From: an uncultured virus (IMG/VR IMGVR_UViG_3300030109_002585)
Taxonomy: Duplodnaviria; Heunggongvirae; Uroviricota; Caudoviricetes
DNA: 64,000 nucleotides
IMG/VR virus record: IMGVR_UViG_3300030109_002585
Reading direction: 5' to 3' (one strand)
The notes under the pieces are model-generated. The model saw only the letters and a program-made list of their open reading frames with translations. It was not told where the DNA came from and searched no databases. The position numbers and the translations under genes were made by a program. How positions within the stretch are numbered: position 1 is the stretch's first letter; every line of letters begins with the position of its first letter. Shown here one piece after another: positions 6,089 to 61,384 of this stretch.

Positions 6089-6723
6089 TTAAGATGGCAT
6101 ATGTATATTTAAAGACAGGAAAATTTGATAAAGACTCTAATGATTTAACCATTGACACTATTCCATTGAATGTTACATCAGTAGGGGTTGCAGTAAGCAA
6201 AACTATTCCTTCTTTTCCTATTCCATTTTCAGGAGTAGTTACCGGAGAATCATTAACCGCCGCATTAGATTTAGGAATGTGTACCAAGACAATTGATTTG
6301 AGCGGATTTATTTCTGAAACTTCTATTAGAAAAACTAGAACCCCTGCTTCCGGTGGAACAGAAGTTAATACTGCTTTAACTTACACTGCTCACGAAATAG
6401 CACAAATGATAGCATCAGGTGTGGACTCAACCGGATTACAGGATAACCAATCTATGAATGAATTAGTTATTTTGATGCCTTCTAAAGTTAGTAATGCCTA
6501 TGCCGCTAGAACATCAACACTAGTACCATTTAATTTTGCATCTAGAGGTACTGCTGGTTTTGGTGACAATACAGGAGTAGCATTTAAAAAATCAACATTT
6601 CCTGATTCTCAAACTGATACCGGTATGTCAGGTTTTATTCGTAGTTTTTCTTTTAATATGGAATCAGAATCAATTGATTTAAGTTTTAGTATGCAGTTTG
6701 AAGTAGCAACAATAGGACCGTGA
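6085..6723 (+). CDS. Putative distal tail protein
   Basis: Synteny directly after the tape measure; beta-rich. Confidence 0.45.
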   Translation: MIKMAYVYLKTGKFDKDSNDLTIDTIPLNVTSVGVAVSKTIPSFPIPFSGVVTGESLTAALDLGMCTKTIDLSGFISETSIRKTRTPASGGTEVNTALTYTAHEIAQMIASGVDSTGLQDNQSMNELVILMPSKVSNAYAARTSTLVPFNFASRGTAGFGDNTGVAFKKSTFPDSQTDTGMSGFIRSFSFNMESESIDLSFSMQFEVATIGP

Positions 6724-13900: not shown

Positions 13901-14865
13901 CTTTATCAGAAGATATAGAGTTAGACATGGAAAGAGGTATGATAGGAAGTACCGTTACTATTTGTAATGAAGCGGAAGATTTAGTTAATGAATTGTTGGA
14001 AGAAGAAGGTATTGAGTTTGAAAATACTTCTCCCGAATACCCTTTATTTATAGCACCTAACTATCAGGGTATTGATTTATTTTCAGCAATAAACTTTTTA
14101 TTAAGCAAGAAAGAAAAAACTCTTTTCCATGATAATGACACTTTCCAAATAAAATCAAAGAGCGATGTTTTCTTCGATACGGGCGTGTTTATTAGTGATT
14201 CTTCTGATGTTGAATTATATAATTACGAAAGAGAAGAAGATTTATTCAATCTAAAAAATGAAATTGCAGTATATGGGTCAAGTCATAAAGCAGTTAGAAG
14301 TGATTTTACCAGCATAAAAGAAGATGGTAAGAAGACTTTAGAAGTGTATGATAATAAATTAACTACTCAGGAAGAAGTTAATGAAAGAGCCGAACAAGAA
14401 TTAGCACTACATACATCTTTAAATGAACGAATAGAAATAGAAGTAGGACACAAAAACTTATCCCAAGTAAAAGCAGGTGACATAGTGGAATTAGAAATAC
14501 CAAGAGAAAATGTCCGAAGAAATACATATAAGGTTTTACAGAATGAGCATTTATTAACAGGCAACATGAAACTACAATTAGGAAGATATAGTAAGGTTTT
14601 AGAAGATAGGTTCTCAGAATTGGCTATTGAGGCAAAAAATTTAAGAACAGCAATTAGAGATAAAAGATTTGACGAAAGTAAGGTAGGATATATTATGTCA
14701 GAAGACATAAAAATTAAACCTATTCGTTTTGTTATTAGAGAAAGGGGAAGTAGTGGTGGTGCGCCTTTAGGATTTGGGACACCCCTAAATACTAGCACTA
14801 GGCCATTAGGACATGAGGAAGGTAGTGGTGTTACTTACACTACATTATTGGAGGAAGAGTATTGA
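7981..14865 (+). CDS. Giant tail tip/baseplate-hub or host-recognition protein (2294 aa)
   Basis: Hub-like segments (FSGAIEKI..IAGRS; C-terminal AGDIVELEIP...YKVLQ) interrupted by large beta-rich insertions. Confidence 0.6.
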   Translation: MSRIFAEGSGAVRNVSETLNTNSNTTLTNVGGVYYIGMGVTGTGIPDNTYVTATSLGSDELTISQAATATAEISATFNKTNYDTATNPRFKTFNAYSGSERLYTIVYEQTPSGSAETLVQQLAGSDSADTEYSNLETTEGFKIMAYDFNTGVGLELSMNLTNDNYFVLVHSDDYTQHHFAKITSTITENNTTNGGTVENTVVGFEFEPKLGTEIERDTKFMVFKGPPVADTARACKLLAVSAGIKKDLQNDLVCAKPLFYFFNDNLDKDNQLDHNTKYFMKFLGANATTVTPSVTNTFVTVSDNKAVIKDYSKYTHNIKIVDNLKNMDYPAYKEGGTNLPLALVNEWNGTNTHPTTVPSVFTDYNDCFPNARRDSDLDISSTAALSGAGQSAQVFTGPIRYVHYDFSPTRANKAYNVFDLNVLDSSESRGSFLECKMVDNKRLLDSKLKRLDKIRVRHRLHKGIFNDWFALKATIKSSLGSNEYRFTTEYDLDTMFNVGDEVKIGTGASAPILIIETIDAINNSGTTGKEQDITFRAVSRIEGTGLFGSSGYTLSEGAVIYRRAWNNTDKTLLTTFDIIENRHNNLYVKLISSDFGFLEASVTNSDANKQLLTLSFAGTSHSGSDTALDYMDGSFYIEVEKFSGAIEKIHKTKKDGQTIFTIAGRSEVRKLLGPIVNKNTLHSEDIIYSTNSPYERLFYAGSGVAATCSFNSKLVVCSGTHSLAEGDDIYLLGGGNSDTVSYIGRVDVLGGLDGDGDPDGSNSTTRVVLEENSLAESNEGTGAHILLRSHSNYYVFNKALSSNRAVDSVSTLSGASSKGLFFTGGTSQNLGGTETGSLIGTSCSTNPKAKGFYLSDCLSILSDGKFQARLDDNATGTTTATDKTYQTFDTVNTLLDFTVLSQTRTDNRTVVELAPYIPLTLGRVDINYANVKDTTFNATTLGVVGASTIGDMSFVTTAASASYNALSTTASARKYHGEPLYANGVFIGRMIMANQVIADSTVTIYIDTPLTADIDGQTIQTISATGNFGETTKLTHELNMLNGGHLHGGKFIGLLNPYIRYEGGVDYRPTLMNYPLYYKDASGNITNSAAQNSNMECNTYIQKYGAPIYRIYNLEKGNYNRVGNSNGVQFTNDYITSRYYTEILSKIPYYASAYRVNFGYTIIGSSGYLNRITGVGKTDRTDYGHGHILPESRGLLPVNGSRFFDTSIHESNSGADEVVFGTTPFTQIPPNPFLSKEVLYQIDPKVARMFLFSNCDKDVYSSKRYDSLMAVSASSPVINRDITDYAFFGLEKPSPTTNSDPKESMMGYTSSVNLTDDNYVTSNIVSSSKTLSSLKRFSLMRLTEVVIDWSFNQIDPENAPSKDRVLPIFTYSGYNWTLITGASGKWQSSTNDKPEVADYSGSTLTADADVSSVLSNNDLVVDENGRLIGQVASVGGAGNTVITFNAAANKTNGNAYSTGHLYKVTALISDSNEVTSSGQSVYGHGKEDTFNEWQQPIHMLKSIVTNEAAEYGKNNSDFDDFYGVHLDDSVHSSRASNIFLPISFELNMANVTQGGASQESDMGSGTSTTMQKHPSKIMNELDGMNTFTDSSTVDDKDALYNGMLPLFLDRFSVENGKSRADKGMVGQVITAASGQQIDDTPTDTTDMGIIGLRTFREFNRFDNSKGDSNAIRTYDKDTDGVMLTFKPRLFFDETGVTDTSAGNRSVFHYFIDIDANKTVNHYDDSDADDLVSFVSDTTAARINRRSLRLMNDLTGCYLVSEAGKYLNESNSVTTYSHNVVTPISLDEMSPTTIAYVLSHEIDTTNTNLRHIITTDKALPNGFYRIMQPNHVCMYNYSPKEISLNTLSSKYTKMSGEDSCYTSINSYIVADKKSKKQIQNVYNTGDNEAALSMYLVADLDVQGSSDYVVLREGNNFESILDSDIAYNVCVSDGENPFKASLEYIDSGVDIGHVIKFSDMKEQLGIVSVSEVFNLTLSEDIELDMERGMIGSTVTICNEAEDLVNELLEEEGIEFENTSPEYPLFIAPNYQGIDLFSAINFLLSKKEKTLFHDNDTFQIKSKSDVFFDTGVFISDSSDVELYNYEREEDLFNLKNEIAVYGSSHKAVRSDFTSIKEDGKKTLEVYDNKLTTQEEVNERAEQELALHTSLNERIEIEVGHKNLSQVKAGDIVELEIPRENVRRNTYKVLQNEHLLTGNMKLQLGRYSKVLEDRFSELAIEAKNLRTAIRDKRFDESKVGYIMSEDIKIKPIRFVIRERGSSGGAPLGFGTPLNTSTRPLGHEEGSGVTYTTLLEEEY

Positions 14866-23424: not shown

Positions 23425-24306
23425 TTACCACCAATCGTCTAATTTTTTCTGTATTTTACCGGTTCTTATGCTTGATATATCCCAATCCATAGCCTTGTAA
23501 ATAGGTTCTGCCTTTCTTACTACCTCTTGGGCGTAGTGGTCCCAATCAATTAGATAGCCGTCGAAGTCTGCATAGGTTGTTCCTGAAACATATTCGACTT
23601 GTTTCATTTCGTGTGTTAATGGATTTCTAAAAGAATCATTCACATGTTTTACTTTTACAAATAAGTAAGAGTCATCAAACTCCATATTCTTCTTTTGCCA
23701 TCCATATAAGATACCTGCAATACCTGAACCAAAGGTAGGTTTCTTACCTTCTAGAGTTGTAAAGTATTTACTATCTTTACCACATTTACCACACCATTTG
23801 AAGTTTTCTCTTATAGAGTATTTAGTCTTACATTCGGGACATTTTACAGTAAACCTGTTAGCCCTTAGTCTGCTTCTTTTAATGACTTCACTAGGTTCTA
23901 GTTTACCTTCTCTGACATTACAATAGATAGAATGCAGATATTTATTTATCTCATGAAGAGAACATTGATTCACCCACATAGTTAGCACTTCTGTTTGTAC
24001 TGATTTTGCAAGTTTAGTTTCGCTTACTCTTTTAGCAGTAAAGCCGGTCATAGTAAACTTAGGTTTATCTAACCATTCTCCATCCTCCCAAGATACTAAA
24101 CCAGCATTTCTATTCTTAGTGGTTCCAACACCCAATGCTGAAAAATACTTTTCAAACTCTAATTGAACGGGGTGTTCGTCTAACCCCATAACATTAGGAA
24201 AGTGTTCTCTGACAGATGCTTCTATTTCTTTAATAGCAATTTCAGCAGTTTCCACTGAATCTATTTGAACATAGATTGAATCTGTATGTCCGTAAACTAC
24301 TTTCAT
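23425..24306 (-). CDS. polB: DNA polymerase family B, C-terminal half (split gene)
   Basis: Starts MKVVYGHTDS (a YGDTDS variant); LEFEK, KNR and GF..KR motifs; inserted CPEC/CGKC Zn finger. Confidence 0.9.
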   Translation of the reverse strand: MKVVYGHTDSIYVQIDSVETAEIAIKEIEASVREHFPNVMGLDEHPVQLEFEKYFSALGVGTTKNRNAGLVSWEDGEWLDKPKFTMTGFTAKRVSETKLAKSVQTEVLTMWVNQCSLHEINKYLHSIYCNVREGKLEPSEVIKRSRLRANRFTVKCPECKTKYSIRENFKWCGKCGKDSKYFTTLEGKKPTFGSGIAGILYGWQKKNMEFDDSYLFVKVKHVNDSFRNPLTHEMKQVEYVSGTTYADFDGYLIDWDHYAQEVVRKAEPIYKAMDWDISSIRTGKIQKKLDDWW

Positions 24307-24311
24307 AAATA

Positions 24312-24527
24312 TCACTCCAATGGGTGTTCTATATTTTTATCTCCAAGAGTCCACTTTAAGGCTTTGATTACTCCTTCCAATGCCTTGTAGTTTCTCATGT
24401 GATATATGCGGTCTTTCTTATTAGGACTCTGCATTTTAGTATAGTGCATGTTTTGTTTTCTTTCTGCCTTTTCAAGCATAGCGTGTATATCAGCCCAAGA
24501 CCTATCATAAGTAAAGGGCATAATCAC
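24312..24527 (-). CDS. Hypothetical protein
   Basis: 71-aa ORF between the PolB halves. Confidence 0.55.
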   Translation of the reverse strand: MIMPFTYDRSWADIHAMLEKAERKQNMHYTKMQSPNKKDRIYHMRNYKALEGVIKALKWTLGDKNIEHPLE

Positions 24528-25431: not shown

Positions 25432-26119
25432 ACTTCCATCTCCTTTGCTTTGTAAAAATAATGATTCTTTCTCATATTTTCTGTGTCTTTAAGTGGCTGT
25501 AAGTTTTCTAAGGCCCAACACTTCTTGAAATCTTCATCCTCCATAGATGTAAAATTAAAAGAGGCCACTGGCTTAATGTGGTCTATGTGCCAAAGGCCGT
25601 GATTATTCCAATTCATCCAATCATCAAATTGGTTTTCTAAATGGGTTCTTAATTCATCCATAGTAAAATCTAACCCATTAAGATACTTACTTTTGCGAAT
25701 ACGGATTTTAGGTTTTAGTCCTTTTCTTACTGCATCTTGCACTGCCATATTAAGTTTGTTTTTAGGTTGTTTGTGCCAATTACTAAATGAGCATTTTCTT
25801 GAACAGAAAGTGATGTGTTTAGCCCTTGTTGTTGGGGTGAAGTGTTCTTTACATTCCTTGCATTGAATATCTATCTTAGGTGGTCGCCTTGTTTCACGCC
25901 ATTTCTTTTTGCGTTCCGTAATATATTTCCTATGCTTCTTTTGATATTCAGATTTCTTTATAGCGAGAGCCTCTGCATTTTCCTTTCTCCATTGTTTAGA
26001 GTATTCTGCTCGCTTCGCTTTCCTACATTCTTCACTACAAGTAACATGACTAGAGCGATAGGCTTCAAACTCCTTATTACAAACCACGCATTCTTTCATA
26101 CTTCCATCTCCTTTGCTTT
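25426..26119 (-). mobile_element. HNH insertion bounded by a 26-bp direct repeat
   Basis: tttcatacttccatctcctttgcttt at 25426-25451 and 26094-26119. Confidence 0.7.
25428..26099 (-). CDS. HNH homing endonuclease-like protein with N-terminal Zn fingers
   Basis: WHIDHIKP...NLQPL...N HNH core; two CxxC/CSxxC fingers. Confidence 0.85.
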   Translation of the reverse strand: MKECVVCNKEFEAYRSSHVTCSEECRKAKRAEYSKQWRKENAEALAIKKSEYQKKHRKYITERKKKWRETRRPPKIDIQCKECKEHFTPTTRAKHITFCSRKCSFSNWHKQPKNKLNMAVQDAVRKGLKPKIRIRKSKYLNGLDFTMDELRTHLENQFDDWMNWNNHGLWHIDHIKPVASFNFTSMEDEDFKKCWALENLQPLKDTENMRKNHYFYKAKEMEV

Positions 26120-27757
26120 AAATGCCGCTAATCTAATTGCTTCTCTCGCACTTGCTGTTATACTTGCGGCTAAATCAACATCAGCCCAAGCAAAACCTGT
26201 ATATCCAATGATACCATAAAAGGAAGCCATTAATCTTTTGACAGCCATTTGATTGTTATACCACTTAACATATTCACTTTCATTGTTGGACTCTCTTGCT
26301 TCACGCATGAGCCGCTTATATTCGTTACGGAGTGCCTTTAACTCCAAGACTGATTTAGGCAATAAACCCAATTCATCCGTCTTATAATAAAGCATATCAA
26401 CTTCTGTGACTTCGCTGAAATCTCTAGGTGTTAGAATGTTAACTCCAAACTCCGTAGGTTCAGATGATTTAGTTTCAAATGAAATATTCCGTGCAATCAT
26501 CATAGCAGGGTACAAACCTGCATAATCAAATGCCGCTACATTGACATGCAATCCGTTAGTATTCTCACTCAATGGGTCATATATCATAGCCCCTTTGTAT
26601 GATTTCTTTTCTGCTTTCTTATTGCCTGTTGGTGCTTTCCACTTAGCATTACGCATAAAGTAAATAGAACCCATATGGCTTGCATAGAAACAAGCATCAA
26701 ATGGTGCTTTCAATAATCTTTGAAGTGAAAGTATTGCTTCACTACAATAATTAGTTTCATCTATTTCAACAATCAATTCAACATCTTTTAGAGCATACTG
26801 TAAATAAGTTTCAGTATCTTCTAGCCAAGCCCTACGGTAAAACTCGTTTGGGTCGGGAAACTTCTCTGAAACTAACTTCTTCTTGTTAAGTAAAGATTCA
26901 GATACATAGTCCAAAGATAGAGAAGGTAATGTACCTCTTTGTGAATCATTCCATTGTCTTTCAAAAGCAAGGTCTAATGAGAGGGTAATGCGGCCTCCTA
27001 TCGGCTGTTCTATCGGTGAGAACCCATTCTCACCTTTAGTAAACTTAAAGCCGTTCTTGGCCTTCTTTAGCCCATCCACTCGATTAATCGGTGACATTCT
27101 CTTAGGGTTAATTCCTAATTCACAACATCTTTCTAAGAGTTTAGGTATATCCGCAAAGTGACCAAACCATGCAATTAACATATCAGGGTCTTTGTCTATC
27201 ATAGTATTAATGAAGTGTTCAAGCATATCTCTTTCAGAATTAAAAGCATACATTTGTTTATATTGTAAAGTGGAGAATCCATTAGATTTTCCATTAGGAA
27301 ACCATACCCATTGGTAATATTCTTCGTCATAGTTATCATACATTACAATAGTAGTAATCATGTCGTGATATTCTCCACCTTGTTGCCATTCCATATCCCA
27401 ATACCATTTACGCATTTTGTATTCTGGCATTTCTGAAATAGTATCAACAGCGTATCTAAATGTATAAGGTACATCTGCTTCATATGTTTTCTTAAACTTC
27501 TTTCTAGAAGAGAATGTATCAAATGAGTTATCGACATATACTTTCTTTAGTTTCTCTCCGTCTAGGTTTGTCCATTCACCGTGTTCATATTCAAACTCTC
27601 TTTCTAGATACCTAGAAGGAGCATATGTACGATGTTCAGTTTCATTTTCATTAACGAAGAAATAAGGTTTGAATGCTTCTAATGCAAACTTCTTTTCACC
27701 ATTTTCTCTCCAAGATTTATACACATGCTTACCATCTGAACATCTGCTAATTATCAT
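26096..27757 (-). CDS. polB: DNA polymerase family B, N-terminal half (exonuclease and palm/fingers)
   Basis: WDME ExoI, YALKD ExoIII, FDYAGLYPAMM region II and KRLMASFYG region III. Confidence 0.92.
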   Translation of the reverse strand: MIISRCSDGKHVYKSWRENGEKKFALEAFKPYFFVNENETEHRTYAPSRYLEREFEYEHGEWTNLDGEKLKKVYVDNSFDTFSSRKKFKKTYEADVPYTFRYAVDTISEMPEYKMRKWYWDMEWQQGGEYHDMITTIVMYDNYDEEYYQWVWFPNGKSNGFSTLQYKQMYAFNSERDMLEHFINTMIDKDPDMLIAWFGHFADIPKLLERCCELGINPKRMSPINRVDGLKKAKNGFKFTKGENGFSPIEQPIGGRITLSLDLAFERQWNDSQRGTLPSLSLDYVSESLLNKKKLVSEKFPDPNEFYRRAWLEDTETYLQYALKDVELIVEIDETNYCSEAILSLQRLLKAPFDACFYASHMGSIYFMRNAKWKAPTGNKKAEKKSYKGAMIYDPLSENTNGLHVNVAAFDYAGLYPAMMIARNISFETKSSEPTEFGVNILTPRDFSEVTEVDMLYYKTDELGLLPKSVLELKALRNEYKRLMREARESNNESEYVKWYNNQMAVKRLMASFYGIIGYTGFAWADVDLAASITASAREAIRLAAFKAKEMEV

Positions 27758-39606: not shown

Positions 39607-39891
39607 TCATTCTTCTTCACCGCCAATTTTAATCCATCCCATATTTAGGTCTGCATCAATAAAAGTATGAACATGAGTTTCATAAAACTCATCTAGAATA
39701 TCATCCTTATATCCTCTCTTTCCCCAATAAACACCTTTAGTTCTTTTTTGGTTGTTATCATTAGGATGCCTTCTCTTATGGTTAGCCTGTCTTTCTTTAA
39801 GAGTTATCTTGCCTTGAGGCGTTCTAACTTCAACGATAGAAACCTCTCCATATTTGTTTCTTACTTCTTTAAATGTAGTATTATATTTCAT
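39607..39891 (-). CDS. Hypothetical protein
   Basis: 94-aa ORF. Confidence 0.5.
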   Translation of the reverse strand: MKYNTTFKEVRNKYGEVSIVEVRTPQGKITLKERQANHKRRHPNDNNQKRTKGVYWGKRGYKDDILDEFYETHVHTFIDADLNMGWIKIGGEEE

Positions 39892-40421
39892 TCTTCTTCA
39901 CTCCAACCTTCACCGCATTTTTCATTTTCATCATATCCATAAGTGCCTTCTCCCCATCTTTGTACTCTTTCAAATCCATAATCACGGAAAATCATTAATT
40001 GTTTTGGCTTGGTATTTTCCCAAGAACCATAATGTCCTCTTCCGCCTAATACATAGGCAGTTTTCATAAGTGGTTCCCAAATAGATACTGTCCTAATATC
40101 AGTCCCACTGAAATAAGCAGAACCGAATGGATGCGTATGAATCCAACACTTAATCGGAAGTTTCATTCCAACAGGGTCAATCTTAAAATCAACATAGCCT
40201 GATGTTCCCGAAGAAACATGTAAGGCATCATTAGCATCAATTACTACTTGTACTTCTAATCCTTTAAGAATCTTAGTTGAAGCAAACCAAATAGCATCAT
40301 GAAAGTTTGTTGCTGATACATCACCATCATAGGATTCTTTAATAGTTTCCTCGACTAATGTGTTATTCCATTGTGTAATTTCTCCTACTGCCATATCCCA
40401 ATTAAATTCCATCTTCATCAC
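39888..40421 (-). CDS. JAB/MPN+ metalloprotease (deubiquitinase-like)
   Basis: WIHTHPFGSAYFSGTD matches HxH-x7-S-x2-D; upstream Glu in LEVQV. Confidence 0.85.
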   Translation of the reverse strand: MMKMEFNWDMAVGEITQWNNTLVEETIKESYDGDVSATNFHDAIWFASTKILKGLEVQVVIDANDALHVSSGTSGYVDFKIDPVGMKLPIKCWIHTHPFGSAYFSGTDIRTVSIWEPLMKTAYVLGGRGHYGSWENTKPKQLMIFRDYGFERVQRWGEGTYGYDENEKCGEGWSEEE

Positions 40422-41495: not shown

Positions 41496-41708
41496 TTATG
41501 CCTCCAATTCTTCATTCATTTCTATTTTAAATTCCCATGTGTGGAATACTTCATGGCCTCCTAAAAAGCCACCTGCTTCTCTAATAGGGCCAATGTATCT
41601 TGACCCACAAACTTGACAGTAAACAAGAACAATTCTTTCTTCATAATAAGAACCTTTCTCGTCACTAAATTCGACTATATCTCCAATATTATCTTCGGTG
41701 TATTTCAT
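41496..41708 (-). CDS. Small Zn-finger protein
   Basis: CQVC...HEVFH. Confidence 0.5.
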   Translation of the reverse strand: MKYTEDNIGDIVEFSDEKGSYYEERIVLVYCQVCGSRYIGPIREAGGFLGGHEVFHTWEFKIEMNEELEA

Positions 41709-42265
41709 ACATTCACGACCATAAAGGATTTTACTTCTTCTTCATTAAACCAACGCTGAATCCATTGTGCGCCAATACCTGCAATTGCGGCTTGCATGAA
41801 ATGAACATTTTTATTAGTACCATCCCATGAATCACCCTGACAACTGAATGAGCCTTCCGGCCCTGCTAATAATGTATCGTACATTTTAGGGTCTGCCTGA
41901 TAAGAAATTAAAGCCGCATTACGACCTTGCGCTCTCAAATCTAACCACTTAATATCTGAATTATACATTGTTTTCCTAAGTCCTATATTATCAACACAAC
42001 TGATAACTAAATCAAAATTAGCCATTTGCTGTGCAGTTAGAATAGGAAACTTGGAACCTGTTAATACAGTCTTGTATCTATTAGCCATAGCCTGAACCTT
42101 AAATTCACCTACTTCCTCTTTTGTAAAGTTTTGATAGGTAATATTTTTTGTTTCAACCTTGTCAGGGTCGGCAATTGTAATTCTATACATATCGACTTTA
42201 TCTAATAAAGGTACTAGGAAACTCCCAATACCGCCTGTTCCAATAACTAATATTTTTCTTTTCAT
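41705..42265 (-). CDS. ThiF/E1-like ubiquitin-like activating enzyme
   Basis: GTGGIGS, DPDKVETKNITYQ, DLVISCVDN..R and WLDLR motifs; candidate catalytic Cys in FSCQ. Confidence 0.9.
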   Translation of the reverse strand: MKRKILVIGTGGIGSFLVPLLDKVDMYRITIADPDKVETKNITYQNFTKEEVGEFKVQAMANRYKTVLTGSKFPILTAQQMANFDLVISCVDNIGLRKTMYNSDIKWLDLRAQGRNAALISYQADPKMYDTLLAGPEGSFSCQGDSWDGTNKNVHFMQAAIAGIGAQWIQRWFNEEEVKSFMVVNV

Positions 42266-43219: not shown

Positions 43220-43401
43220 AGTCTTAGCCTCCTGATTGAAGTTTCGTATGCTTTGGAAGCATACATGCCTTGAGATACTAATTGTTTGAATATCTCAATT
43301 CTCTTTTCTTCTCTTCTAACTAGCCTTTGTAAAAACTTTGGCTTGTAAAATCTATGCTCACTGGCTGGTATCTTGTCTTTCATTCTCATTTGTATCACCA
43401 T
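43216..43401 (-). CDS. Small basic hypothetical protein
   Basis: 61-aa ORF. Confidence 0.4.
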   Translation of the reverse strand: MVIQMRMKDKIPASEHRFYKPKFLQRLVRREEKRIEIFKQLVSQGMYASKAYETSIRRLRL

Positions 43402-44269
43402 ATATTATATTTCGGCCTCTTATATCGGCCATTTTGCTATATCCAAGCATTTGAATTATTTTCTTACTAGTCTTTCCTATTGCGGAAAGAGAAATGCCTG
43501 TCGATTCAGATATGTCGGATTTATTAATCCCTGAATATCTAAATATGTTTACTGCTAACCAACATACACTTGCGTAGTATGCTCTTGGTTTATTGTAACA
43601 ATGAGACTCTGTTATAGGGTCTAGTTTTGTTAATAAATCAGTAGCGTTTGAATAAAACATTACATCATCTGTAATCTTATTACATGTTTGTTTCATCATG
43701 TATGATGGGTCAGCCCCGTATAGTACATTTTTATTCATGAAGTGATTAATCATCTTCTGCACTAATCTATTTACTATTTTAATAGAACATGAGTATTCAG
43801 AACATAAATCCTTTAGAGGAAGAGGGGTTCTATTTTCCTTTAGAACATAGTACACAGTAGCAGTACACCTTGCTTCTAAGCGGATATTACCGAACAGCCC
43901 TTTTCTTTGAGCCTGTAAATAGCATTCTTCCACTCTATCCTTCAAAGGATGATTGACTTGTATAGAAGATAATATCATATTACAAGTCTGTATTCCAGCA
44001 ACAATATGTCTAGGAGTCAGAGAGTTATTGCCCCTCTTATTGAATTTGGAAGAACCTGCTCCTGTTATTACTGAACCCAATTTACCATTATCGGCTGAAT
44101 GAGTCACTTCTCCATTATTCACAAACCTAACAGTCTCTTCAAACAATTCAGTAACTACGACTAAGCCGCAATCACTACATTCTGTTTCTCCCATTCTTTC
44201 ATTGTAATTAAATACTAAACTTCCACATTCACTGCATTTCATCCATATCAACCCTATACTCATTTTCAT
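43358..44269 (-). CDS. tfb: Transcription initiation factor TFIIB/TFB homolog
   Basis: CSECGS...GETECSDCGLV Zn ribbon followed by two cyclin-like repeats. Confidence 0.85.
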   Translation of the reverse strand: MKMSIGLIWMKCSECGSLVFNYNERMGETECSDCGLVVVTELFEETVRFVNNGEVTHSADNGKLGSVITGAGSSKFNKRGNNSLTPRHIVAGIQTCNMILSSIQVNHPLKDRVEECYLQAQRKGLFGNIRLEARCTATVYYVLKENRTPLPLKDLCSEYSCSIKIVNRLVQKMINHFMNKNVLYGADPSYMMKQTCNKITDDVMFYSNATDLLTKLDPITESHCYNKPRAYYASVCWLAVNIFRYSGINKSDISESTGISLSAIGKTSKKIIQMLGYSKMADIRGRNIIYGDTNENERQDTSQ

Positions 44270-54732: not shown

Positions 54733-55215
54733 TCACTCTTCAGAAGAATCTTCACTAGACAATAGCGACTCAACGCTTCCATCCCATGTCTTTAGTTTAT
54801 ACATCTTAGAAAGACTGTTTCGTACTTTCTTAGATTGTGCTACTGCATAATGTTCAGCAGAGTCAAAGGTTCCGCCACCTGATTTAGCATGTTTTAGTGT
54901 TACTGCACTAATAATGCCATCGTGGTTATAGTACACTAAAGATGCTTCTTCAACAACACCGCAAATACGGTCAATTGCTACTCTTACACTTGCTGGTACT
55001 GCACTTCTTTGTCCTCTTCGACCCAAAGGTGAACCATCACGGCCCTTCAAAAGAGCCTTTAGCGCATTAGCCGCCGCTTCTCTTTCATTTGGGTTTTCTT
55101 GACCAACTTGAAGGTGCAACTCAACAACTTGCTTGAGTGCGCCATCTAGTGTTTGGTCTGCTTCTAGGTATTCATTAATCTCTATAACGAGACTGTCCCA
55201 TTTTACTTCATCCAT
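54733..55215 (-). CDS. Hypothetical protein, paralog family A
   Basis: Similar to 58946..59482 and 55981..56568 (G.R..VPA, HxKxGG, WDG). Confidence 0.65.
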   Translation of the reverse strand: MDEVKWDSLVIEINEYLEADQTLDGALKQVVELHLQVGQENPNEREAAANALKALLKGRDGSPLGRRGQRSAVPASVRVAIDRICGVVEEASLVYYNHDGIISAVTLKHAKSGGGTFDSAEHYAVAQSKKVRNSLSKMYKLKTWDGSVESLLSSEDSSEE

Positions 55216-55329
55216 ATTATCATATCTCTGCCCAGTTTGTCGGGCAAACTATCCATAGGTTAGCCATATATAAGGAGAGGGAAAGCAATTATTAGCCATT
55301 AAAATCCATTTTAAAATACGCTTAACTTT

Positions 55330-55700
55330 TTATTAACCGGATTATTTTCGGAGAAATGTTGATTATTTTCGGATTAAATATTATTCCACCGGAAAAAAGA
55401 GCGGAAAAATAATACATTGAGAAACTTCAGGGTAATGTTACACTACCCTTTAGTTTCTAATGGTCTAGACATTATTCCATTATTCCACTCCACAAAGGGG
55501 GGTCACTAACCAAGAGAGATAGATTAGCCCTTAGAAACTCAAGGGTAATGTAATACACTACCTAAGAGAAATGAGAGGGGGTGGTGAAGTAGTGTATGTA
55601 TGTAATGGAATAATGGAATAATGGAATGTAATTAATATCTTAGGGGTAGTGTTACACTACCCTCTAGTTTCTTCGATTCTTTTTCCAAACCACTGTGGAA
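55330..55700. repeat. Cluster of palindromes and iterated repeats (candidate origin, terminus or injection-stop signal)
   Basis: gggta(a/g)tgttacactaccc palindromes at about 55430 and 55644, an inverted copy at 55531-55553, and attattcc/ggaataat iterations. Confidence 0.65.
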
Positions 55701-55921
55701 ACTTCGGTGGAAACATCTTTTCCATTGTATATTATATTGTATATCATATTGATATTGAATACTATACCATAATTATACGGTCAATTGAAACACATAGTAA
55801 ATAATAGGGTATTAATATGGAGTGTATTTATTGATACCATTTAATCGCTCGATAACAGTATGTAGTTTGGTTGTAGTGGCTTTGATTAACGGAAACCCTA
55901 TCAAAAAAAAAAGGAAAAAAC

Positions 55922-55960
55922 CGATACTAGAGGACCAATGTAAGTCATCCTCTAGTATCG
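55922..55960. terminator. Hairpin with the conserved loop ccaatgtaagtca, copy 1
   Basis: 13-bp perfect stem flanked by A- and T-tracts. Confidence 0.7.
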
Positions 55961-55980
55961 AGTTTTTTTTCAGTAGTCAA

Positions 55981-56568
55981 TCAAGCCCTGTCATGTTCAT
56001 ACATGCCAATCATTCTAGGTGGTTGAATTGGGTGTCTGTCACCAATATATTTGATGCCCTCTTCTGTGCCATCCCAAATGCCTTCTCTAAGAGATGCAAT
56101 TAGCCTTCTCCTGAGTTTGGCGCAATGTCTGTCCAACCATCTATCAAAAAGAACAACTTCATGATTATCTTGGGTGTCAAAATCGTTCAATACTCGGCGA
56201 TTGACAATAAAAGGACAAAAGCCGACCAAAGGTAGCCATTGTCTCTCCCAATCTTCCATACTGAATCTAAACTGGTCAACTAATTTCTCAATGGTTGCTT
56301 CAATTTGGGCAGGGACAAGGTATCTCTGCCCGCCGGTCAAATACGCCGCTCCATTAATTCTAAGAATGTCCTTTAATGCGCTCCACTGTTTTTCAGCATG
56401 ATAGTCAATATAATTGTTAAAATCATCCTTTCTGTTTTGCAACCAATCAAACATAATACAAATTACTTGCATTACATCTTCTGGTACTTCAGGTTCTCTG
56501 CCCATCCATTCTCCTATTGCTTCTAATCTTCTTTCTAGGTTTTTTACCTTAACTCCGATACTATTCAC
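55981..56568 (-). CDS. Hypothetical protein, divergent paralog family A
   Basis: GTG start at 56568 preferred, downstream of the repeat/TATA; GGQRYLVPAQI...LREGIWDGT. Confidence 0.55.
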   Translation of the reverse strand: MNSIGVKVKNLERRLEAIGEWMGREPEVPEDVMQVICIMFDWLQNRKDDFNNYIDYHAEKQWSALKDILRINGAAYLTGGQRYLVPAQIEATIEKLVDQFRFSMEDWERQWLPLVGFCPFIVNRRVLNDFDTQDNHEVVLFDRWLDRHCAKLRRRLIASLREGIWDGTEEGIKYIGDRHPIQPPRMIGMYEHDRA

Positions 56569-56744
56569 CAATAATGACTTATTCCTTGGTTTATGTAGGG
56601 TACTCCAAAGTTCATACCATATGGTTGTAGTGTCCTTTGAATAACGGAATGCCCCATAAAAAAAGCGAGAAGCCGAAAATAGAAGGTAAAACAAAAAAAC
56701 CTTCTATTTTCGACCCCTCTAGAGGTGTTATGAGTATTTCCTCT

Positions 56745-57335
56745 TCAATAGTAGTGGGCTACCATATTGCGTAGGTTGAATGTCTTAATCATAATAGTTA
56801 AGACTTCCAGAGGGTCGAACCAATCTTCAACCTCTTTAACATCATTGTAGTTGTTACTGTATTGGTTGCAACCACATAATACCGTAATACTACCTACTTC
56901 ATCACCAAATTCATAGAATCTGATACTAAACATCATTTGGTCACCATTTCCAAGGCCATCCCACTCTCGTCTAGTGTGGTATGAAGTAATTGTTGCTTGA
57001 TATTGTTGAGATGTTGGTTTTCGTACTCCGTATTTAGTAACATAGCCATAAGAATCCCTTCTAATATCAACTAATAGGTGTGGGTGAATATAATCTAGCA
57101 AAGTGTGAATATCACTGCCAAAAGATGAATTCAAGTCCAACATACCTTCTCCTGTGTCGCATTCCCAGTCTTTACCATTGGAATCTTTAGTAAACTCATG
57201 TAGTCCAAATTCTGAACCTGTGGAGTATTCTTCCTGCAATTTTTCGATTTTATCTAGTAATTCTTGTTCTTGACCTCTAAAAACTGTTTTTACTTCTTTT
57301 AAGCCGTTTTTCTCTATTATTATTCCATTAACCAT
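56745..57335 (-). CDS. Hypothetical protein
   Basis: 196-aa ORF between repeat copies. Confidence 0.6.
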   Translation of the reverse strand: MVNGIIIEKNGLKEVKTVFRGQEQELLDKIEKLQEEYSTGSEFGLHEFTKDSNGKDWECDTGEGMLDLNSSFGSDIHTLLDYIHPHLLVDIRRDSYGYVTKYGVRKPTSQQYQATITSYHTRREWDGLGNGDQMMFSIRFYEFGDEVGSITVLCGCNQYSNNYNDVKEVEDWFDPLEVLTIMIKTFNLRNMVAHYY

Positions 57336-57510
57336 TGTTAATCCCTCTTATATTGTAAATTATAGGTGCTTTATCTAGGGTATGTCAAAGTAGCATACCA
57401 TATGGTTGCATCTTTGAATGTAACCCTAGTTTTTAAAAAAAAGAGAAAAATGCCGGTCTTTCCCGACTGTCACCTCTAGTCTAAGGGGCGAGGTTTACCC
57501 CATGTTTGCG

Positions 57511-57759
57511 TCATGATTCAGCAGTGTCCTGTTCTGCTGGGAGTGTTTCGTCTTCATCATCGCAAGCGTCTTTTAATTCTTTCCAATTGATGCAATTAAA
57601 ATCCATCATGTCAGTATAGAAACCAGTATAGCCAATGTCTTTAATTCCATGTAAAAAGACCGTTTCTATCGTTTCTTCGATATATTCAACATCGCTCACA
57701 GTTACGGGGTCAAACCAAAGGCTCACAAGCCAAGTTGCTCTATTTGTCCAGCCATTCAT
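57511..57759 (-). CDS. Hypothetical phage protein (NGWTNRATW type)
   Basis: 82-aa acidic ORF between repeat copies. Confidence 0.6.
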   Translation of the reverse strand: MNGWTNRATWLVSLWFDPVTVSDVEYIEETIETVFLHGIKDIGYTGFYTDMMDFNCINWKELKDACDDEDETLPAEQDTAES

Positions 57760-57874
57760 ATTATCACTTAATAATATTATAAAATTATGAATATATAGGG
57801 TACTCCAAAGAGCGTACCATATGGTAGTAGTCTTCTTTGTCTTTTGACTACTACCACATAAAAAAATAAAAAAA

Positions 57875-58335
57875 AGAGAAACGCCGCCTACTCCAACACT
57901 CGAATCACCGCTTCATCAGTTTCCCGCCAATTCGCCATGGCTCCTTGGACTCTGTTTACTTTTTGAAGACTTACAACGCATGTTTCGGCTTTGTCTCTCT
58001 ATGGTTTATTCCGGCTTACGCCATAGGAATGTAAAAGGTGTTGGACGGGCTATCTTTTGGATTCCCGCATTGTGAGTGGATTATCTTGTACCACTAAGTT
58101 TGAAAGTGCGCTATGGCATTTCATATATGAGGTCACAAACTACACAATCTATTCATTGACAGTCAATCAATGCCCTTTTGGGGAACATAGGTCAAGAGCC
58201 ACTATTCTAACTCATTTGAGCATCGAATAATGGTTAAACTCGCCACCACAGCGATTAGTGTATGCCTTACTCCCTTCCAAGAGCATTCGGCCACCAACTT
58301 ATCCCAAGAACCCGCTAAAGTCGCTTGAGACAATA
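57875..58335 (-). ncRNA. Candidate structured non-coding RNA (about 460 nt)
   Basis: No ORF of 60 aa or more; higher GC; several hairpins; TATA upstream and T-tract downstream on the minus strand. Confidence 0.45.
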
Positions 58336-58440
58336 ATAAGCACATAATACCCCTATATAGGGTCTTTCAAAGTTAATACCATATGGTTTGGTAGGTCACT
58401 TTGATGATGACCGGTACGAACCATAAAAAAAAAGAAAATA

Positions 58441-58477
58441 AATGATGCAGGGCCAATGTAAGTCACCCTGCATCATT
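58441..58477. terminator. Hairpin with the conserved loop ccaatgtaagtca, copy 2
   Basis: 12-bp perfect stem with a different sequence from copy 1. Confidence 0.7.
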
Positions 58478-58497
58478 TTTATGCCTAAATCTGAGAA

Positions 58498-58821
58498 TCA
58501 CTCAGAAACATGAATTGATTCAATAGTCAATCCGTGTTCTTTGACTTCATCTCTAAGCATGTGTACTGTTGCAACACCATTACCACGGATAGCACCTTTC
58601 ACAGTGGTCGCCGTTGTGATGTTTTGACAAGCAATCTCGATTATCTTATCTAACATGCGTTGCTGTGCTTTTTTCAGAGAAGTATATACTCCAATCTGCC
58701 TTGTCTGTTCCTTTCCTCTCCTATCAGTAAAGTTTCTGATTAGTCTGAAAACTCGGTTATTCTCTATCCTCACTTTTTCACCTATTAATGTGAATAATAC
58801 AGTATTAAATAGGGTACTCAA
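58498..58821 (-). CDS. Hypothetical protein (true start probably near 58780)
   Basis: ORF between repeat copies. Confidence 0.5.
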   Translation of the reverse strand: MSTLFNTVLFTLIGEKVRIENNRVFRLIRNFTDRRGKEQTRQIGVYTSLKKAQQRMLDKIIEIACQNITTATTVKGAIRGNGVATVHMLRDEVKEHGLTIESIHVSE

Positions 58822-58945
58822 AGTTCATACCATATGGTTGTAACTTTGTGCATTACGAAGTAACTTGACCCTATATAGGGGTATGTACCCCTAATAATTG
58901 CTTCAAAGGGATTGAAGTGGTATTAGGGGTTACTTAATACAGGAG

Positions 58946-59482
58946 ATGAAAAAAATGGACATGGAAAAATGGACTCAACGAAGCACAGATATTAGAGAAT
59001 GGCTCAAGCACAATGATGCTGGGGCTATGGCTACACTAATCGAACAAACCCTAGATGCGGGCGACAATTCTGACAACATGGAAGAATTAGACCGTTTTTG
59101 GGAGGCAGTAAGAGCAATATGCAAAACCTTACCAAACACACCTATCAAGCAGGGCCGTGGCTCAACACTAGCACCGGCAATTCAGGCGTGTGTGGATGGT
59201 GTAGTGAATCGCATACAAACTGCCTTTGCAGTAATTGGTGACTCTGACCTAATTTTGGAAGTTATGCTTCCACACGGAAAGACAGGCGGCGCATATGCCG
59301 ATATTGACGCTTTTGCAAACGATATGGCTACAAAAGCACAAAGGGTACTAAAGGCGGCATTGAAAGATGGCCGTTGGAATGGTACAATGACTGAAGATGG
59401 ACTAACCGGACTTACCCCGCCGGTCAAGCAAACTTCAGACAATGAAGAAAGTGACGAGGACTCAACGGAGGAATCGCACTGA
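58946..59482 (+). CDS. Hypothetical protein, paralog family A (opposite orientation)
   Basis: GGAG RBS; clear similarity to 54733..55215. Confidence 0.7.
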   Translation: MKKMDMEKWTQRSTDIREWLKHNDAGAMATLIEQTLDAGDNSDNMEELDRFWEAVRAICKTLPNTPIKQGRGSTLAPAIQACVDGVVNRIQTAFAVIGDSDLILEVMLPHGKTGGAYADIDAFANDMATKAQRVLKAALKDGRWNGTMTEDGLTGLTPPVKQTSDNEESDEDSTEESH

Positions 59483-59741
59483 TACTCACTTCAATCCCTT
59501 TGTAGCCACAATCAAACTCCAACGGCGATTTGCACGGATTGAAAAGTCAAGACAGTCGGACCGGCTCACTTGCGTGAAATGCAAATTAGGAGCAGGGTGG
59601 ATTGATGGAAAATACCTAACGGACCCATCAATCCACCTTGTAGCCACTTTTTTTATGAGGTTGTGTTCCCGATGGTGTTTCAAAGTACACACACAACCAT
59701 ATGGTATTGATTGCTTTGTGTCAATACCCCGTCAATAAAAA

Positions 59742-59782
59742 AAAATAATAGAGAGCCGATGTAAGTCACTCTCTATTATTTT
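59742..59782. terminator. Hairpin with the conserved loop ccgatgtaagtca, copy 3
   Basis: 14-bp perfect stem with a third distinct sequence. Confidence 0.7.
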
Positions 59783-59939
59783 CTTTATTTTGGACACCCA
59801 CTATGGCACTTTAGACGACCATGTTTCATCAGTTATCTTCAATACTATCTTCATGGAGATAACCTGATGAGTATTCGTTTCCCCGTCATTTTTCTGTACC
59901 AAACTATTCGGTCAGATTGTGCCACAGTGAGTGTGGAAT

Positions 59940-60155
59940 CTATTCATCCCATAAAGCGGCCCTGAAATGTTTTTCGCTGAATGTGTGGCTATCTTCCTTT
60001 AGCATAACGCACATCTCATCAATTAAGTCTTCATGGCGGATTAGGCCATCAGACATAGTAACATGATTGATTACTTTCACTAATGCGAGATAATGTCTTT
60101 TCTGAAACTTGCTCATTCTTCTTCCTCTCCTGATAGGTCCAAGTCCCGAATACAC
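59940..60155 (-). CDS. Hypothetical protein (likely start MSKFQK)
   Basis: Coupled to the upstream ORF. Confidence 0.5.
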   Translation of the reverse strand: MYSGLGPIRRGRRMSKFQKRHYLALVKVINHVTMSDGLIRHEDLIDEMCVMLKEDSHTFSEKHFRAALWDE

Positions 60156-60589
60156 AATACAGCCGCATGGCGGTATTTATCGAATGCGTCGTCATTATCG
60201 AATAGCGTTTCAGCCATTTTATCCAATGAAACTGATACTATCGGTTTTATGTCGTCATCCTTAACCTTAATCAAGTGAAGTTGTTTCTGTAACTTCAACA
60301 ATTTATTGACTCTGCCTCTAATCCATGCACGGTCAATCATTTTGTTTCCTGTGATACTAACTTCATCTATTTGGACGATTCCGACATCTTTTCCAAAATC
60401 AACATAATCAACGCATGTAATTGTTAATTTGTCAAGGCTCATAGTCCATTCAATATCAGTGCTTGTATCTCTTTCATTCCACATGCTAACCATTGTGTTA
60501 GTATCTGTGAATTGATATACCATTTGTTTCTTGATAGTGCCGTCATTATACACCGTATCTCCGTAGGTCGTTGTTATATCCATATTCAT
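60113..60589 (-). CDS. Hypothetical protein
   Basis: 158 aa; GGAG RBS; downstream of repeat copy 7. Confidence 0.6.
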   Translation of the reverse strand: MNMDITTTYGDTVYNDGTIKKQMVYQFTDTNTMVSMWNERDTSTDIEWTMSLDKLTITCVDYVDFGKDVGIVQIDEVSITGNKMIDRAWIRGRVNKLLKLQKQLHLIKVKDDDIKPIVSVSLDKMAETLFDNDDAFDKYRHAAVLCIRDLDLSGEEEE

Positions 60590-61384
60590 TAACTCCTTTG
60601 AATAATAGCAATATTACTCTCTTTATAGGGTTGCACAAAGTAGCAACCATATGGTACTATTATGAGATATTGTTGTCTATATAGATGGGGTATATGAGCA
60701 TTGTTTTCTTTTAGAATGAAATGTTTCTATAATAAAACATAACACTTTAATTGAGTTGAAGGGATTATTTAGGTGATTTTCGCTTAAACTAAAACTCACC
60801 TATATATTTACAAATTTATCTATATAGTACCACATAGCATTATACAACCATATGGCTTTGTCCAAATTTTTAATATTGCTATATCAGTCTTATAATGCCA
60901 ACATTACATCATTAATTCATTAATATGAGCATTTGAAGGTTAATTATCTCGCCATTATACCGGCATACTTATACCATAAACAGGACTCGCTTAATACGGG
61001 ATTGATTGTGACTGATGCGGATGATGTATCTAAACTATTAAAAGACATAGTTGATGCTATTACACCAATACTTTCGGATATTAAATCTAATACTAAATCA
61101 GCATTGAATATACAAGTAAGTCAGGCAAATAAGGTTAAATTAAAAGAAATAGCAAAGAAACTTGAATCATTAAAGAGCAAGATTATACCATTATATCATT
61201 TAGATTATAAATCAGGTTCAACTACACAAACTTCATTAAATATAAAATAACATTAAATCATTAAGATTTTATTCTGGGAATACATAAGTTAATTAAAAAA
61301 GGCTGACGCTAGTGCCAAAAAAATTCCGCCACAATTTTTCAAAAACAAATTCTATTTTAAGCAATTAACAGGAAAAGGGTTATT

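Follow-up and report, generated by a model that had tools for sequence, protein, structure and literature searches.

Comparative evidence for exchange and inversion of gene cassettes at a promoter-linked palindrome in a magrovirus-like archaeal virus

In T4-type phages, small elements composed of a terminator and a promoter, the promoter early stem-loops (PeSLs), lie on either side of individual accessory genes of unknown function within a hyperplastic region. According to the available text of the papers that describe them, close relatives differ by indels and replacements whose junctions lie in the elements, the formation of mini-circles was demonstrated, and a dedicated recombinase is not known (Arbiol et al. 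2010, PMC2839356; Comeau et al. 2014, PMC4122927). In the haloarchaeal myovirus HGTV-1, a repeated intergenic motif with a TATA-like sequence and an inverted repeat is described ahead of small open reading frames (ORFs) in one arm of the genome, and the accessible part of the report suggests a role in transcription and shuffling by analogy (PMC3950731). Here, a locus of related layout was analysed in a 64,000-nt stretch of DNA from an uncultured tailed virus (IMG/VR record IMGVR_UViG_3300030109_002585), which as a whole is called the window. At this locus the 10-bp palindrome ACCATATGGT recurs as the core of a dyad that separates short transcription units, or cassettes. Comparison with related viruses showed, as far as assembled sequences can tell, that the core is where the junctions of cassette exchange, insertion, deletion and inversion lie. 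On balance, we lean towards reading the dyad as a promoter-linked palindromic protein-binding site that is also the crossover point of a hyperplastic cassette region. We know of no earlier information on transcription control or accessory-gene acquisition in magroviruses, and the strings 'promoter', 'palindrom' and 'TATA' do not occur in the main texts of the magrovirus papers searched.

Like the PeSLs, the array consists of composite terminator and promoter elements between accessory ORFs without known family, and its indel and replacement junctions between close relatives lie in these elements. It differs from them in its archaeal host and its TATA-type box, ACCCTATA, whereas PeSL promoters are strong sigma-70-like early promoters; in its core, a perfect palindrome of 10 bp with split arms, whereas a PeSL combines an AT-rich promoter with a GC stem-loop; and in that its cassettes are also inverted, the word 'inversion' having no occurrence in the available text of PMC2839356. 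With HGTV-1 the array shares a repeated intergenic element containing a TATA-like box and an inverted repeat. Between 128 and 144 kb of the HGTV-1 genome (NC_021328; L214:33900-49856), 21 copies of a 68-nt element were found before small minus-strand ORFs, the element consisting of two TATA-like boxes around a contiguous GC-rich hairpin. The elements of the two viruses are, however, unrelated in sequence and share no core, and the palindrome is split here. Shuffling in HGTV-1 was proposed by analogy, whereas core-precise junctions and inversions were observed here among many relatives. The array is best read as the archaeal-virus counterpart of the T4-type PeSLs and of the HGTV-1 intergenic motif. 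New relative to these systems are the TATA-type promoters, the split perfect palindrome as crossover site, inversions in addition to indels, and comparative proof at base resolution. The comparison provides direct evidence for the shuffling of self-contained regulatory cassettes by archaeal tailed viruses at one short, defined site, inversions included; before, such shuffling had been proposed only by analogy and for a single haloarchaeal virus.

The core ACCATATGGT was found exactly at 56616, 57397, 57816, 58378, 58829, 59696 and 60646 and nowhere else in the whole window, and an eighth copy at 60847 carried one mismatch, giving an array span of 56616-60856. This confirmed the eight copies that an earlier note, made from the letters of this DNA alone, had listed together with CAAAG and CTTTG arms, which most copies do carry. 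When up to one mismatch was allowed, ten matches were obtained in the window against 2.27 expected, a number reached by none of 100 shuffles; the two one-mismatch matches outside the array are at 20126 and 63247. The sequence CCATATGG occurred nine times in the window, eight of them inside the array. The left arm CAAAG lies 5-10 nt from the core in copies 1-7 and the right arm CTTTG 5-11 nt from it in copies 1-6, while copy 7 has no right arm and the core of copy 8 abuts CTTTG. The idealised dyad is CAAAG-N5-ACCATATGGT-N5-CTTTG, about 30 bp long, in which arm and half-core (CAAAG and ACCAT, ATGGT and CTTTG) stand one helical turn apart on each side. A TATA-like box (TAGGGT on the plus strand, ACCCTA on the minus strand) is situated 15 nt left of the core in copies 1-5 and 7, in agreement with the earlier observation of such a box beside most copies, and ORF starts lie 44-61 nt from the core. 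The minus-strand pattern core-N5-CTTTG-N4-ACCCTA was matched by four window copies, with zero matches expected by chance. The fuller box ACCCTAYA occurred 11 times in the window, five times inside the array; it was not seen in the window's other intergenic regions and would therefore define a separate promoter class. The array offers a concrete promoter class, open to testing, with a conserved 30-bp candidate operator.

The dyad is a palindrome, but not one that folds into a hairpin. Its short spacers between arm and core are mutually non-complementary, so that the palindrome is split, in the manner expected where a protein binds. A hairpin or cruciform had been considered because the right half-core seemed to pair near the A-run in several copies; it was rejected, as ATGGT was paired in only 2-14% of 298 half-sites, and folding of these half-sites gave a mean z of about -1.0 to -1.3 and no general stem. 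A bacterial -35/-10 promoter, with CTTTG inside a -35 TTGnnn and a -10 element 16-18 nt further on, fitted loosely and only in copies 2, 5 and 7, and ACCCTA would have fallen in its spacer. This reading was dropped because of the archaeal gene set and the positions of RNA contig ends.

Rearrangement was first evident in two related genomes, G002 and G003, whose flanks are 73-92% and 71-81% identical to those of the window and collinear with them, while the array is rearranged. The G002 dyad at 5572 is composed of the left half of window dyad 4 and the right half of window dyad 6, and homology between G002 and the window breaks at dyad 6. In G002, the left and right halves of window dyad 4 belong to two different dyads, a distance of 1.6 kb separates the halves of window dyad 7, and the G002 half 7342L matches window half 58829R, i.e. 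the promoter half found to the right of core 5 lies to the left of a core in G002. A search with F1a, the protein of cassette 6, yielded 22 further metagenome loci. The window arrangement recurred in L191 (100% identity), which is possibly the same virus, and in L192 (93%); the G002 arrangement recurred in eight contigs, and a third arrangement was found in L193-L195. Window cassette 1 lies to the right of F1a in L194, L195, L203 and L204.

The most precise junctions were obtained from close relatives. L193 and L194 are 95-97% identical and differ by a 750-nt cassette, and their two high-scoring segment pairs (HSPs) overlap only at 5722-5735, the core with 4 nt on either side. The L193 dyad at 5726 joins the left flank of the L194 dyad at 5725 to the right flank of the L194 dyad at 6475; since the adjoining flanks of these two L194 dyads are unrelated, the crossover is placed inside the 10-bp core. 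Similarly, L196 and L202 (94-97% identical) differ by a 430-nt cassette whose junction falls in 21 shared nt including the core. An assembly artefact is unlikely, because the arrangements recur in independent contigs, contigs of run X3 bridge cores 4, 5, 6 and 7 in window order, and the 10-21 nt of shared identity are, by our own reasoning, shorter than usual assembler word sizes. The runs holding window DNA were available as contigs only. One joint in run X1, from 58849 to 60844 (skipping 1,994 nt, depth 74, shorter side 25 nt), connects the right side of core 5 with the left side of core 8; it may stem from a more abundant relative and was not used as evidence, nor were the stretches without cover in X3, X11 and X13.

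The earlier note had offered recombination as one of two models and had set as its test an alignment across relatives. In that comparison, cassette content, order and orientation varied and breakpoints fell at the dyad. Linkage across a core was broken in 21 of 333 cases, representing nine dyads and at least six distinct events, whereas linkage across a cassette was broken in none of 250 (ordered, non-independent pairs among 25 sequences). Of 75 endpoints of HSPs with at least 90% identity, 43 were no more than 60 nt away from a core, where a uniform null gives 22%, and 12 were no more than 15 nt away (null 6.8%). For the first 22 arrays, 31 of 168 HSP ends lay within 15 nt of a core (null 5.4%), a noisy figure since most pairs are very divergent. 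In these alignments, breakpoints concentrate in the dyad element, though not all in the core itself. The counts also bear on a pure regulon, in which the dyad would only be an operator or upstream activating site, illegitimate recombination would occur anywhere, and selection would retain whole promoter-gene-terminator units. The fixed position of the dyad upstream of TATA boxes, its restriction to one region and the fit of RNA contigs to the predicted units all agree with such a regulon. Random breaks followed by selection would nevertheless be expected to leave duplicated, truncated or missing dyads, whereas recombinant dyads were rebuilt with exactly one core, in register, even between dyads with unrelated flanks, and it was the sides of cores and never the ends of cassettes that had been separated. 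The pure regulon is in our judgement distinctly improbable.

Inverted HSPs were confined to the array. Among 20 genome pairs, 77 HSPs in the flanks had the same and none the opposite orientation, whereas the array gave 22 collinear and 13 inverted HSPs. The F1a cassette (58829-59696) is inverted relative to G002 and G003 and aligns (72%) only in reverse, and with the flanks normalised both the ORF107 and the F1a families were found in both orientations among relatives. These data account for two copies that had been singled out in the earlier note and were found as described there: copy 5, which lies between divergent genes with a TATA element on either side (58810 and 58868), and copy 6, which has no TATA box and lies between convergent terminators. 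Inversion between two cores of a head-to-tail array gives promoter-core-promoter at one end and terminator-core-terminator at the other. Copies 5 and 6 show exactly the two states expected if the segment between their cores had been inverted. F1a precedes ORF158 in the window and follows it in G002, so that a further reversal or transposition is needed, the ends of which would again lie at cores. No strand-changing joints were listed among the contigs of runs X1 or X3.

The array is situated where a minus-strand gene block (18-60.6 kb) meets a plus-strand block starting at about 60.9 kb (Table 1). On the minus strand, the order within a unit is gene end, T-run (three times after a hairpin), dyad, ACCCTAYA box and next start codon; this succession of T-run, dyad, TATA box and gene was seen at copies 1-5 and 7. 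Cassettes occur on both strands, each with its own TATA box and terminator. The half copy that had been reported near 55868 proved to be a decayed dyad, beside which a contig of run X3 ends (at 55858). The listed TTG start of cassette 5 (58821) falls in the TATA region, and the true start is therefore probably lower. In four genomes, copy 8 has been conserved as the right-hand boundary of the array, directly before the plus-strand gene block. The three terminator hairpins have kept a 13-nt loop (CCRATGTAAGTCA on the plus strand) while their stems differ. The conserved loop was also seen in G002, L193 and L194, and one end of the cassette replaced between L193 and L194 lies at the hairpin.

Table 1. 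Coordinates of the array, its flank and one candidate regulator (positions in the window)
Feature	Position	Strand	Details
Divergent TFB/TFIIB-like protein	43358-44269	-	Outside the array; candidate virus-specific promoter factor
F1 paralog, helicase-side flank of the array	54733-55215	-	160 amino acids (aa); own TATA box at about 55266-55273, no dyad
Decayed dyad, left edge of the array	55860-55905		Degenerate core; distal half kept (CTTTG, ACCCTA, A-run); resembles right half of dyad 1
Terminator hairpin, 3' end of cassette 1	55922-55960	-	Conserved 13-nt loop CCAATGTAAGTCA (plus-strand reading)
Cassette 1 ORF	55981-56571	-	About 196 aa if counted from the first start codon after the TATA box; no known family
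Dyad 1	56594-56664		TATA-like 56594-56601 (-), CAAAG 56606-56610, core 56616-56625, CTTTG 56635-56639, A-run 56658-56664 (minus-strand T-run)
Cassette 2 ORF	56745-57335	-	196 aa; no known family
Dyad 2	57374-57442		TATA-like 57374, CAAAG 57386-57390, core 57397-57406, CTTTG 57412-57416, ACCCTA 57423, A-run 57435-57442
Cassette 3 ORF	57511-57759	-	82 aa
Dyad 3	57794-57875		TATA-like 57794, CAAAG 57806-57810, core 57816-57825, CTTTG 57835-57839, A-runs 57860-57875
Cassette 4, structured non-coding RNA	58020-58335	-	Conserved part of about 310 nt
Dyad 4	58356-58433		TATA-like 58356-58363 (-), CAAAG 58368-58372, core 58378-58387, CTTTG 58399-58403, A-run 58425-58433
Terminator hairpin, 3' end of cassette 5	58440-58478	-	Same conserved loop as at 55922-55960
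Cassette 5 ORF (ORF107 family)	58498-58780	-	About 95-107 aa
Dyad 5, double promoter	58810-58877		TATA-like 58810 (-), CAAAG 58819-58823, core 58829-58838, CTTTG 58844-58848, ACCCTATA at about 58868-58877 (+)
Cassette 6, F1a protein	58946-59482	+	178 aa; orphan paralog family F1
Dyad 6, double terminator	59648-59745		T-run 59648-59654 (+), CAAAG 59681-59685, core 59696-59705, CTTTG 59714-59718, A-run 59737-59745; no TATA box
Terminator hairpin, 3' end of cassette 7	59744-59780	-	Loop CCGATGTAAGTCA
Cassette 7, two overlapping ORFs	59940-60589	-	59940-60155 (71 aa) and 60113-60589 (158 aa; ORF158)
Dyad 7	60624-60655		TATA-like 60624-60631 (-), CAAAG 60636-60640, core 60646-60655, no right arm
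Terminal copy 8	60844-60871		ACCATATGGC fused to TTTG

Given where the array lies, its dyads might alternatively be sites of replication origin or partition (ORB-like or parS-like) clustered at the strand switch. Cumulative GC skew reaches its minimum at the array, where genes diverge in orientation, the repeated palindrome is confined to one region, and an AT-rich, ORF-poor stretch of about 640 nt (55216-55860) adjoins it. The skew minimum is, however, explained by gene orientation. The cores are parted by expressed genes, 0.2-0.95 kb from one another, each is tied to a TATA box and a terminator, and copy number and order vary freely among relatives. Neither Orc1/Cdc6 nor ParA/ParB was found above Pfam cut-offs in the window. 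An origin or partition role of the dyads is highly improbable. The ORF-poor stretch itself contains AT-rich tracts and short tandem GGAATAAT repeats, and its conservation in G002 and G003 amounts to 71-73%; the stretch may represent an origin or a further RNA.

Conservation of the core extends well beyond the genomes that align with the window. In five relatives of 84-96 kb, viral records with an estimated completeness of 91-100%, the exact core was found 6, 5, 8, 9 and 6 times, in each case within a single stretch of 2.6-4.8 kb and nowhere else. At least 167 core loci were found in viral contigs, many of them from contigs of 84-96 kb with clustered copies. Among the matches listed, there were at least 259 distinct copies, at least 149 of them in arrays in dozens of viral contigs; of 298 array half-sites, 200 had CTTTG no further than 9 nt from the core, and CCYTA followed 4-11 nt beyond CTTTG in 91 of these 200. 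Even in viruses in which cassettes and flanks can no longer be aligned to those of the window, the core has stayed the same, which implies selection for sequence-specific recognition. At L194 position 4882, a core variant, CCCATATGGT, with normal arms was seen to bound a cassette. Cores with one mismatch thus serve as boundaries of cassettes as well, and counts of exact matches understate the number of array copies.

In prokaryotic genomes (596 billion bases) the full dyad pattern was found at 15 loci scattered over unrelated bacterial metagenome-assembled genomes, which by a rough estimate is about chance level. None of the 15 was labelled as Poseidoniales, the presumed host order. A 14.8-kb contig binned as flavobacterial (L183) contains full dyads at 1501-1528 and 1963-1990, 462 nt apart, and may be a mis-binned magrovirus fragment. 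The nearest record, G001, is without the core, but is a fragment of only 25.6 kb. A collection of phages gave no DNA match to the window.

Transcripts were represented by ten RNA contigs from two marine metatranscriptome runs of one study (X11 and X13), all of which lay inside predicted units, none bridging a core. RNA contigs of F1a begin at 58900 in both runs, about 25 nt downstream of the TATA box of dyad 5, and the contig that covers the flanking F1 paralog stops at 55245, with the TTATATAT box of this gene about 24 nt upstream. These ends fit a TATA box at about -26, a weak hint, as contigs cannot prove a start. Further RNA contigs covered the ORF of cassette 3 (57565-57731, X13) and cassette 7 (60124-60308 and 60219-60380). 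The anatomy expected from the second model of the earlier note, a promoter or operator, was thus found, with the dyad upstream of the TATA box and RNA contigs within units, while the binding of a dimeric factor is its inferred part.

According to the preferred reading, the region would be a hyperplastic accessory-gene region of autonomous units, each with a promoter of the TATA type, a single gene or non-coding RNA and, often after a hairpin, an oligo-T terminator. Successive units are separated by the dyad, which follows the terminator of the first and precedes the TATA box of the second. A putative dimeric sequence-specific protein would bind the dyad and act on the promoters from about -45 to -70, a position typical of archaeal activators such as the Ptr2-type and TrmBL1-type regulators. 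This protein may be viral, the TFB-like protein being one candidate, or of host origin. The core is its own reverse complement, so that two copies can pair in either sense, leading to deletion (or a circle) or to inversion, and the promoter half travels with its cassette. The favoured enzyme is, by analogy with what has been proposed for T4-type PeSLs, the general recombination and repair machinery of the virus acting on very short identity (10-21 bp). The short crossover raises the question of which enzyme recombines so little identity during archaeal virus infections. Cassette genes with such fast turnover are natural candidates for functions in host takeover or anti-defence.

Several points weigh against this reading. 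The dyad binder is a putative protein only. Dyad and TATA box stand at no fixed distance: the spacing is N4 for most copies of the window, N19 for the promoter of F1a and 4-11 nt or more in the family as a whole, and this variation speaks against a rigid contact with the basal transcription factors. Neither copy 6 nor copy 8 has a TATA box close by, and the same holds for many 'other' half-sites. Many endpoints of HSPs are found 30-60 nt away, outside the core proper; the genome pairs used for the orientation and linkage counts are not independent, and some of the inverted array HSPs may be cross-matches between F1 paralogs. The RNA contigs, besides being unable to prove starts, may contain DNA carry-over and derive from only two runs of one study. 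As the host is uncultured, an 'early' timing of the array is a presumption. Lastly, 10 bp is very short for ordinary homologous recombination, so that a dedicated enzyme is possible.

In that case, an unrecognised viral or host recombinase or nuclease would excise, insert and flip the cassettes, and the promoter link would be secondary. Crossover within 10 bp between otherwise unrelated flanks would be expected of such an enzyme, as would an invariant core in viruses whose flanks no longer align, while the many breakpoints 30-60 nt from the core would not. Between G002 and G003, single cassettes appear flipped in place with their order kept, but the flipped cassettes are only about 55% identical, so that replacement by distant alleles is as likely as a flip in place. 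The orphan protein F1, present in or beside most arrays and without known function, might be taken for the missing enzyme; it is, however, acidic and helical without a match to a nuclease or recombinase fold, and no conserved gene adjoins the array in all groups. A tyrosine recombinase (PF00589) was detected in none of the five near-complete relatives and in 14 of 14 control genomes, serine recombinases and Y1 transposases were likewise found in none of the five, and a Pfam scan of 95 window ORFs gave no integrase or recombinase match, in line with the earlier note, which had recognised none in the window. A dedicated site-specific system is in our view unlikely. Somewhat more doubtful still is its boldest form, a new kind of magrovirus shuffling system in which a 10-bp palindrome would be cut or exchanged by an unrecognised enzyme and whole units, including a structured RNA, would be excised, captured and flipped at high frequency. 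If true, a dedicated palindrome system would be an archaeal-virus analogue of integrons and shufflons with orientation-free sites and without a known recombinase family.

The comparison of the sites with attC that the earlier note had drawn could not be maintained. As in integrons, single-gene cassettes are parted by a repeated symmetric exchange site. However, neither IntI nor another tyrosine recombinase was found among the window ORFs or in the five relatives; attC folds as a single-strand hairpin, which the array sites do not; and the array cassettes have their own promoter and terminator and occur in both orientations, whereas integron cassettes are promoterless and depend on a common promoter that reads them in a single orientation. 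By these defining tests the array is not an integron. It also resembles DNA inversion systems (shufflons, Hin/Cin, phiCh1) in having segments bounded by short symmetric sites and present in both orientations; for phiCh1, tail-fibre inversion is mentioned in PMC3950731. It differs from these in that no serine or tyrosine invertase was found in the five relatives and in that whole transcription units flip, not the ends of coding sequences.

The unit between cores 3 and 4, which is poor in ORFs, is, judged by its covariation, a structured RNA gene. Four homologues were aligned, from the window (58020-58335, minus strand), G002 (L168:5215-5530, minus), G003 (L169:6674-6995, plus) and L189 (640-962, minus); the cassette is inverted in G003. 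The structure comprises 63 base pairs in 12 helices, with 99.2% of cells paired against 31-41% with slid partners, and 24 pairs were changed on both sides against 0-4 in slid controls. On four of five measures none of 500 shuffles reached the observed value. The four sequences form two lineages and thus provide one deep comparison only. The transcript probably runs from about 58333 to about 57880. An RNA contig at 57952-58306 had a depth of 359, compared with 3-30 for the other four RNA contigs of the run, contig depth being a poor measure of expression. Rfam gave no match (the best, manA RNA, scored 17.3 bits against a gathering score of 55.2, E 0.55), and in a motif scan no more than three viral contigs, apart from the window, contained the RNA. 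The array also offers, in this cassette, an apparently abundant structured viral RNA.

Searches against PHROGs and Pfam identified in the window a tail tube, a tape measure, a split family-B DNA polymerase (PolB), an RFC-like clamp loader, an ATP-dependent ligase with its N-terminal domain, an XPF/ERCC4 nuclease with helix-hairpin-helix domain, a Cpn60-family chaperonin, a class II ribonucleotide reductase, JAB and ThiF-like proteins and a TFIIB zinc ribbon protein; PD-(D/E)XK nucleases and an RNase H-fold protein are encoded in addition to the XPF-like nuclease and the ligase. The polymerase was closest to those of haloarchaeal tailed viruses (25% identity). A comparable gene set is described in the accessible text on the published magroviruses, abundant viruses of uncultured Marine Group II archaea (PMC5434244). 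Its gene content, with replication genes of archaeal type, marks the window as a magrovirus-like tailed virus of archaea, and the promoters should therefore be of the TATA type. The ORFs of the cassettes matched no Pfam, PHROG or NCBIfam family.

Three proteins were considered as regulators. The TFB-like protein matched the Pfam TFIIB zinc ribbon (E 5e-5), NCBIfam TFIIB (E 5e-7, far below its cut-off) and PDB TFIIB (E 0.0074); the three weak matches are collinear along the protein, which was present in all five relatives, weakly in one of them, G006. A Myb-like protein is a weak candidate for the dyad binder, because it was present in only three of the five dyad-bearing relatives. A 73-aa ArsR-like protein, another candidate, was present in four of the five and is not conclusive.

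F1 proteins are helical, of 150-250 aa, with an acidic C-terminal tail and conserved HGK(T/S)GG and RW-DG motifs (alignment A1). They were found in or beside 18 of 22 arrays, often in two or three copies and in either orientation. In the subgroup of the window, one copy always stands beside the UvrD-like helicase and the further copies are array cassettes. Pfam gave nothing below E 0.03 for 26 members, and a PDB profile search nothing below E 0.14. With an AlphaFold model (pLDDT 83), Foldseek returned nothing at E <= 0.001 and weak rows that included Cas1 at E 1-3, and VIA-align returned generic three-helix bundles only (Z <= 8.4). Atlas leads at 0.91-0.92 (a Rep_trans-bearing cluster and T4 gp59) lay within the stated noise range and were set aside. 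In a search of 5.8 billion proteins, the homologues were 31 unnamed marine metagenome proteins.

Other features of the window lie outside the array. The tail module contains an ORF of 2,294 aa (7981-14865, plus strand) without a Pfam match. PolB is split into two parts, at 23425-24315 and 26096-27757 (both minus strand), about 1.8 kb apart with other ORFs between them. A JAB-domain protein (39888-40421, minus strand; weak match) and a ThiF/E1-like protein (41705-42265, minus strand) are encoded near each other, a pair that hints at a virus-encoded ubiquitin-like modification module.

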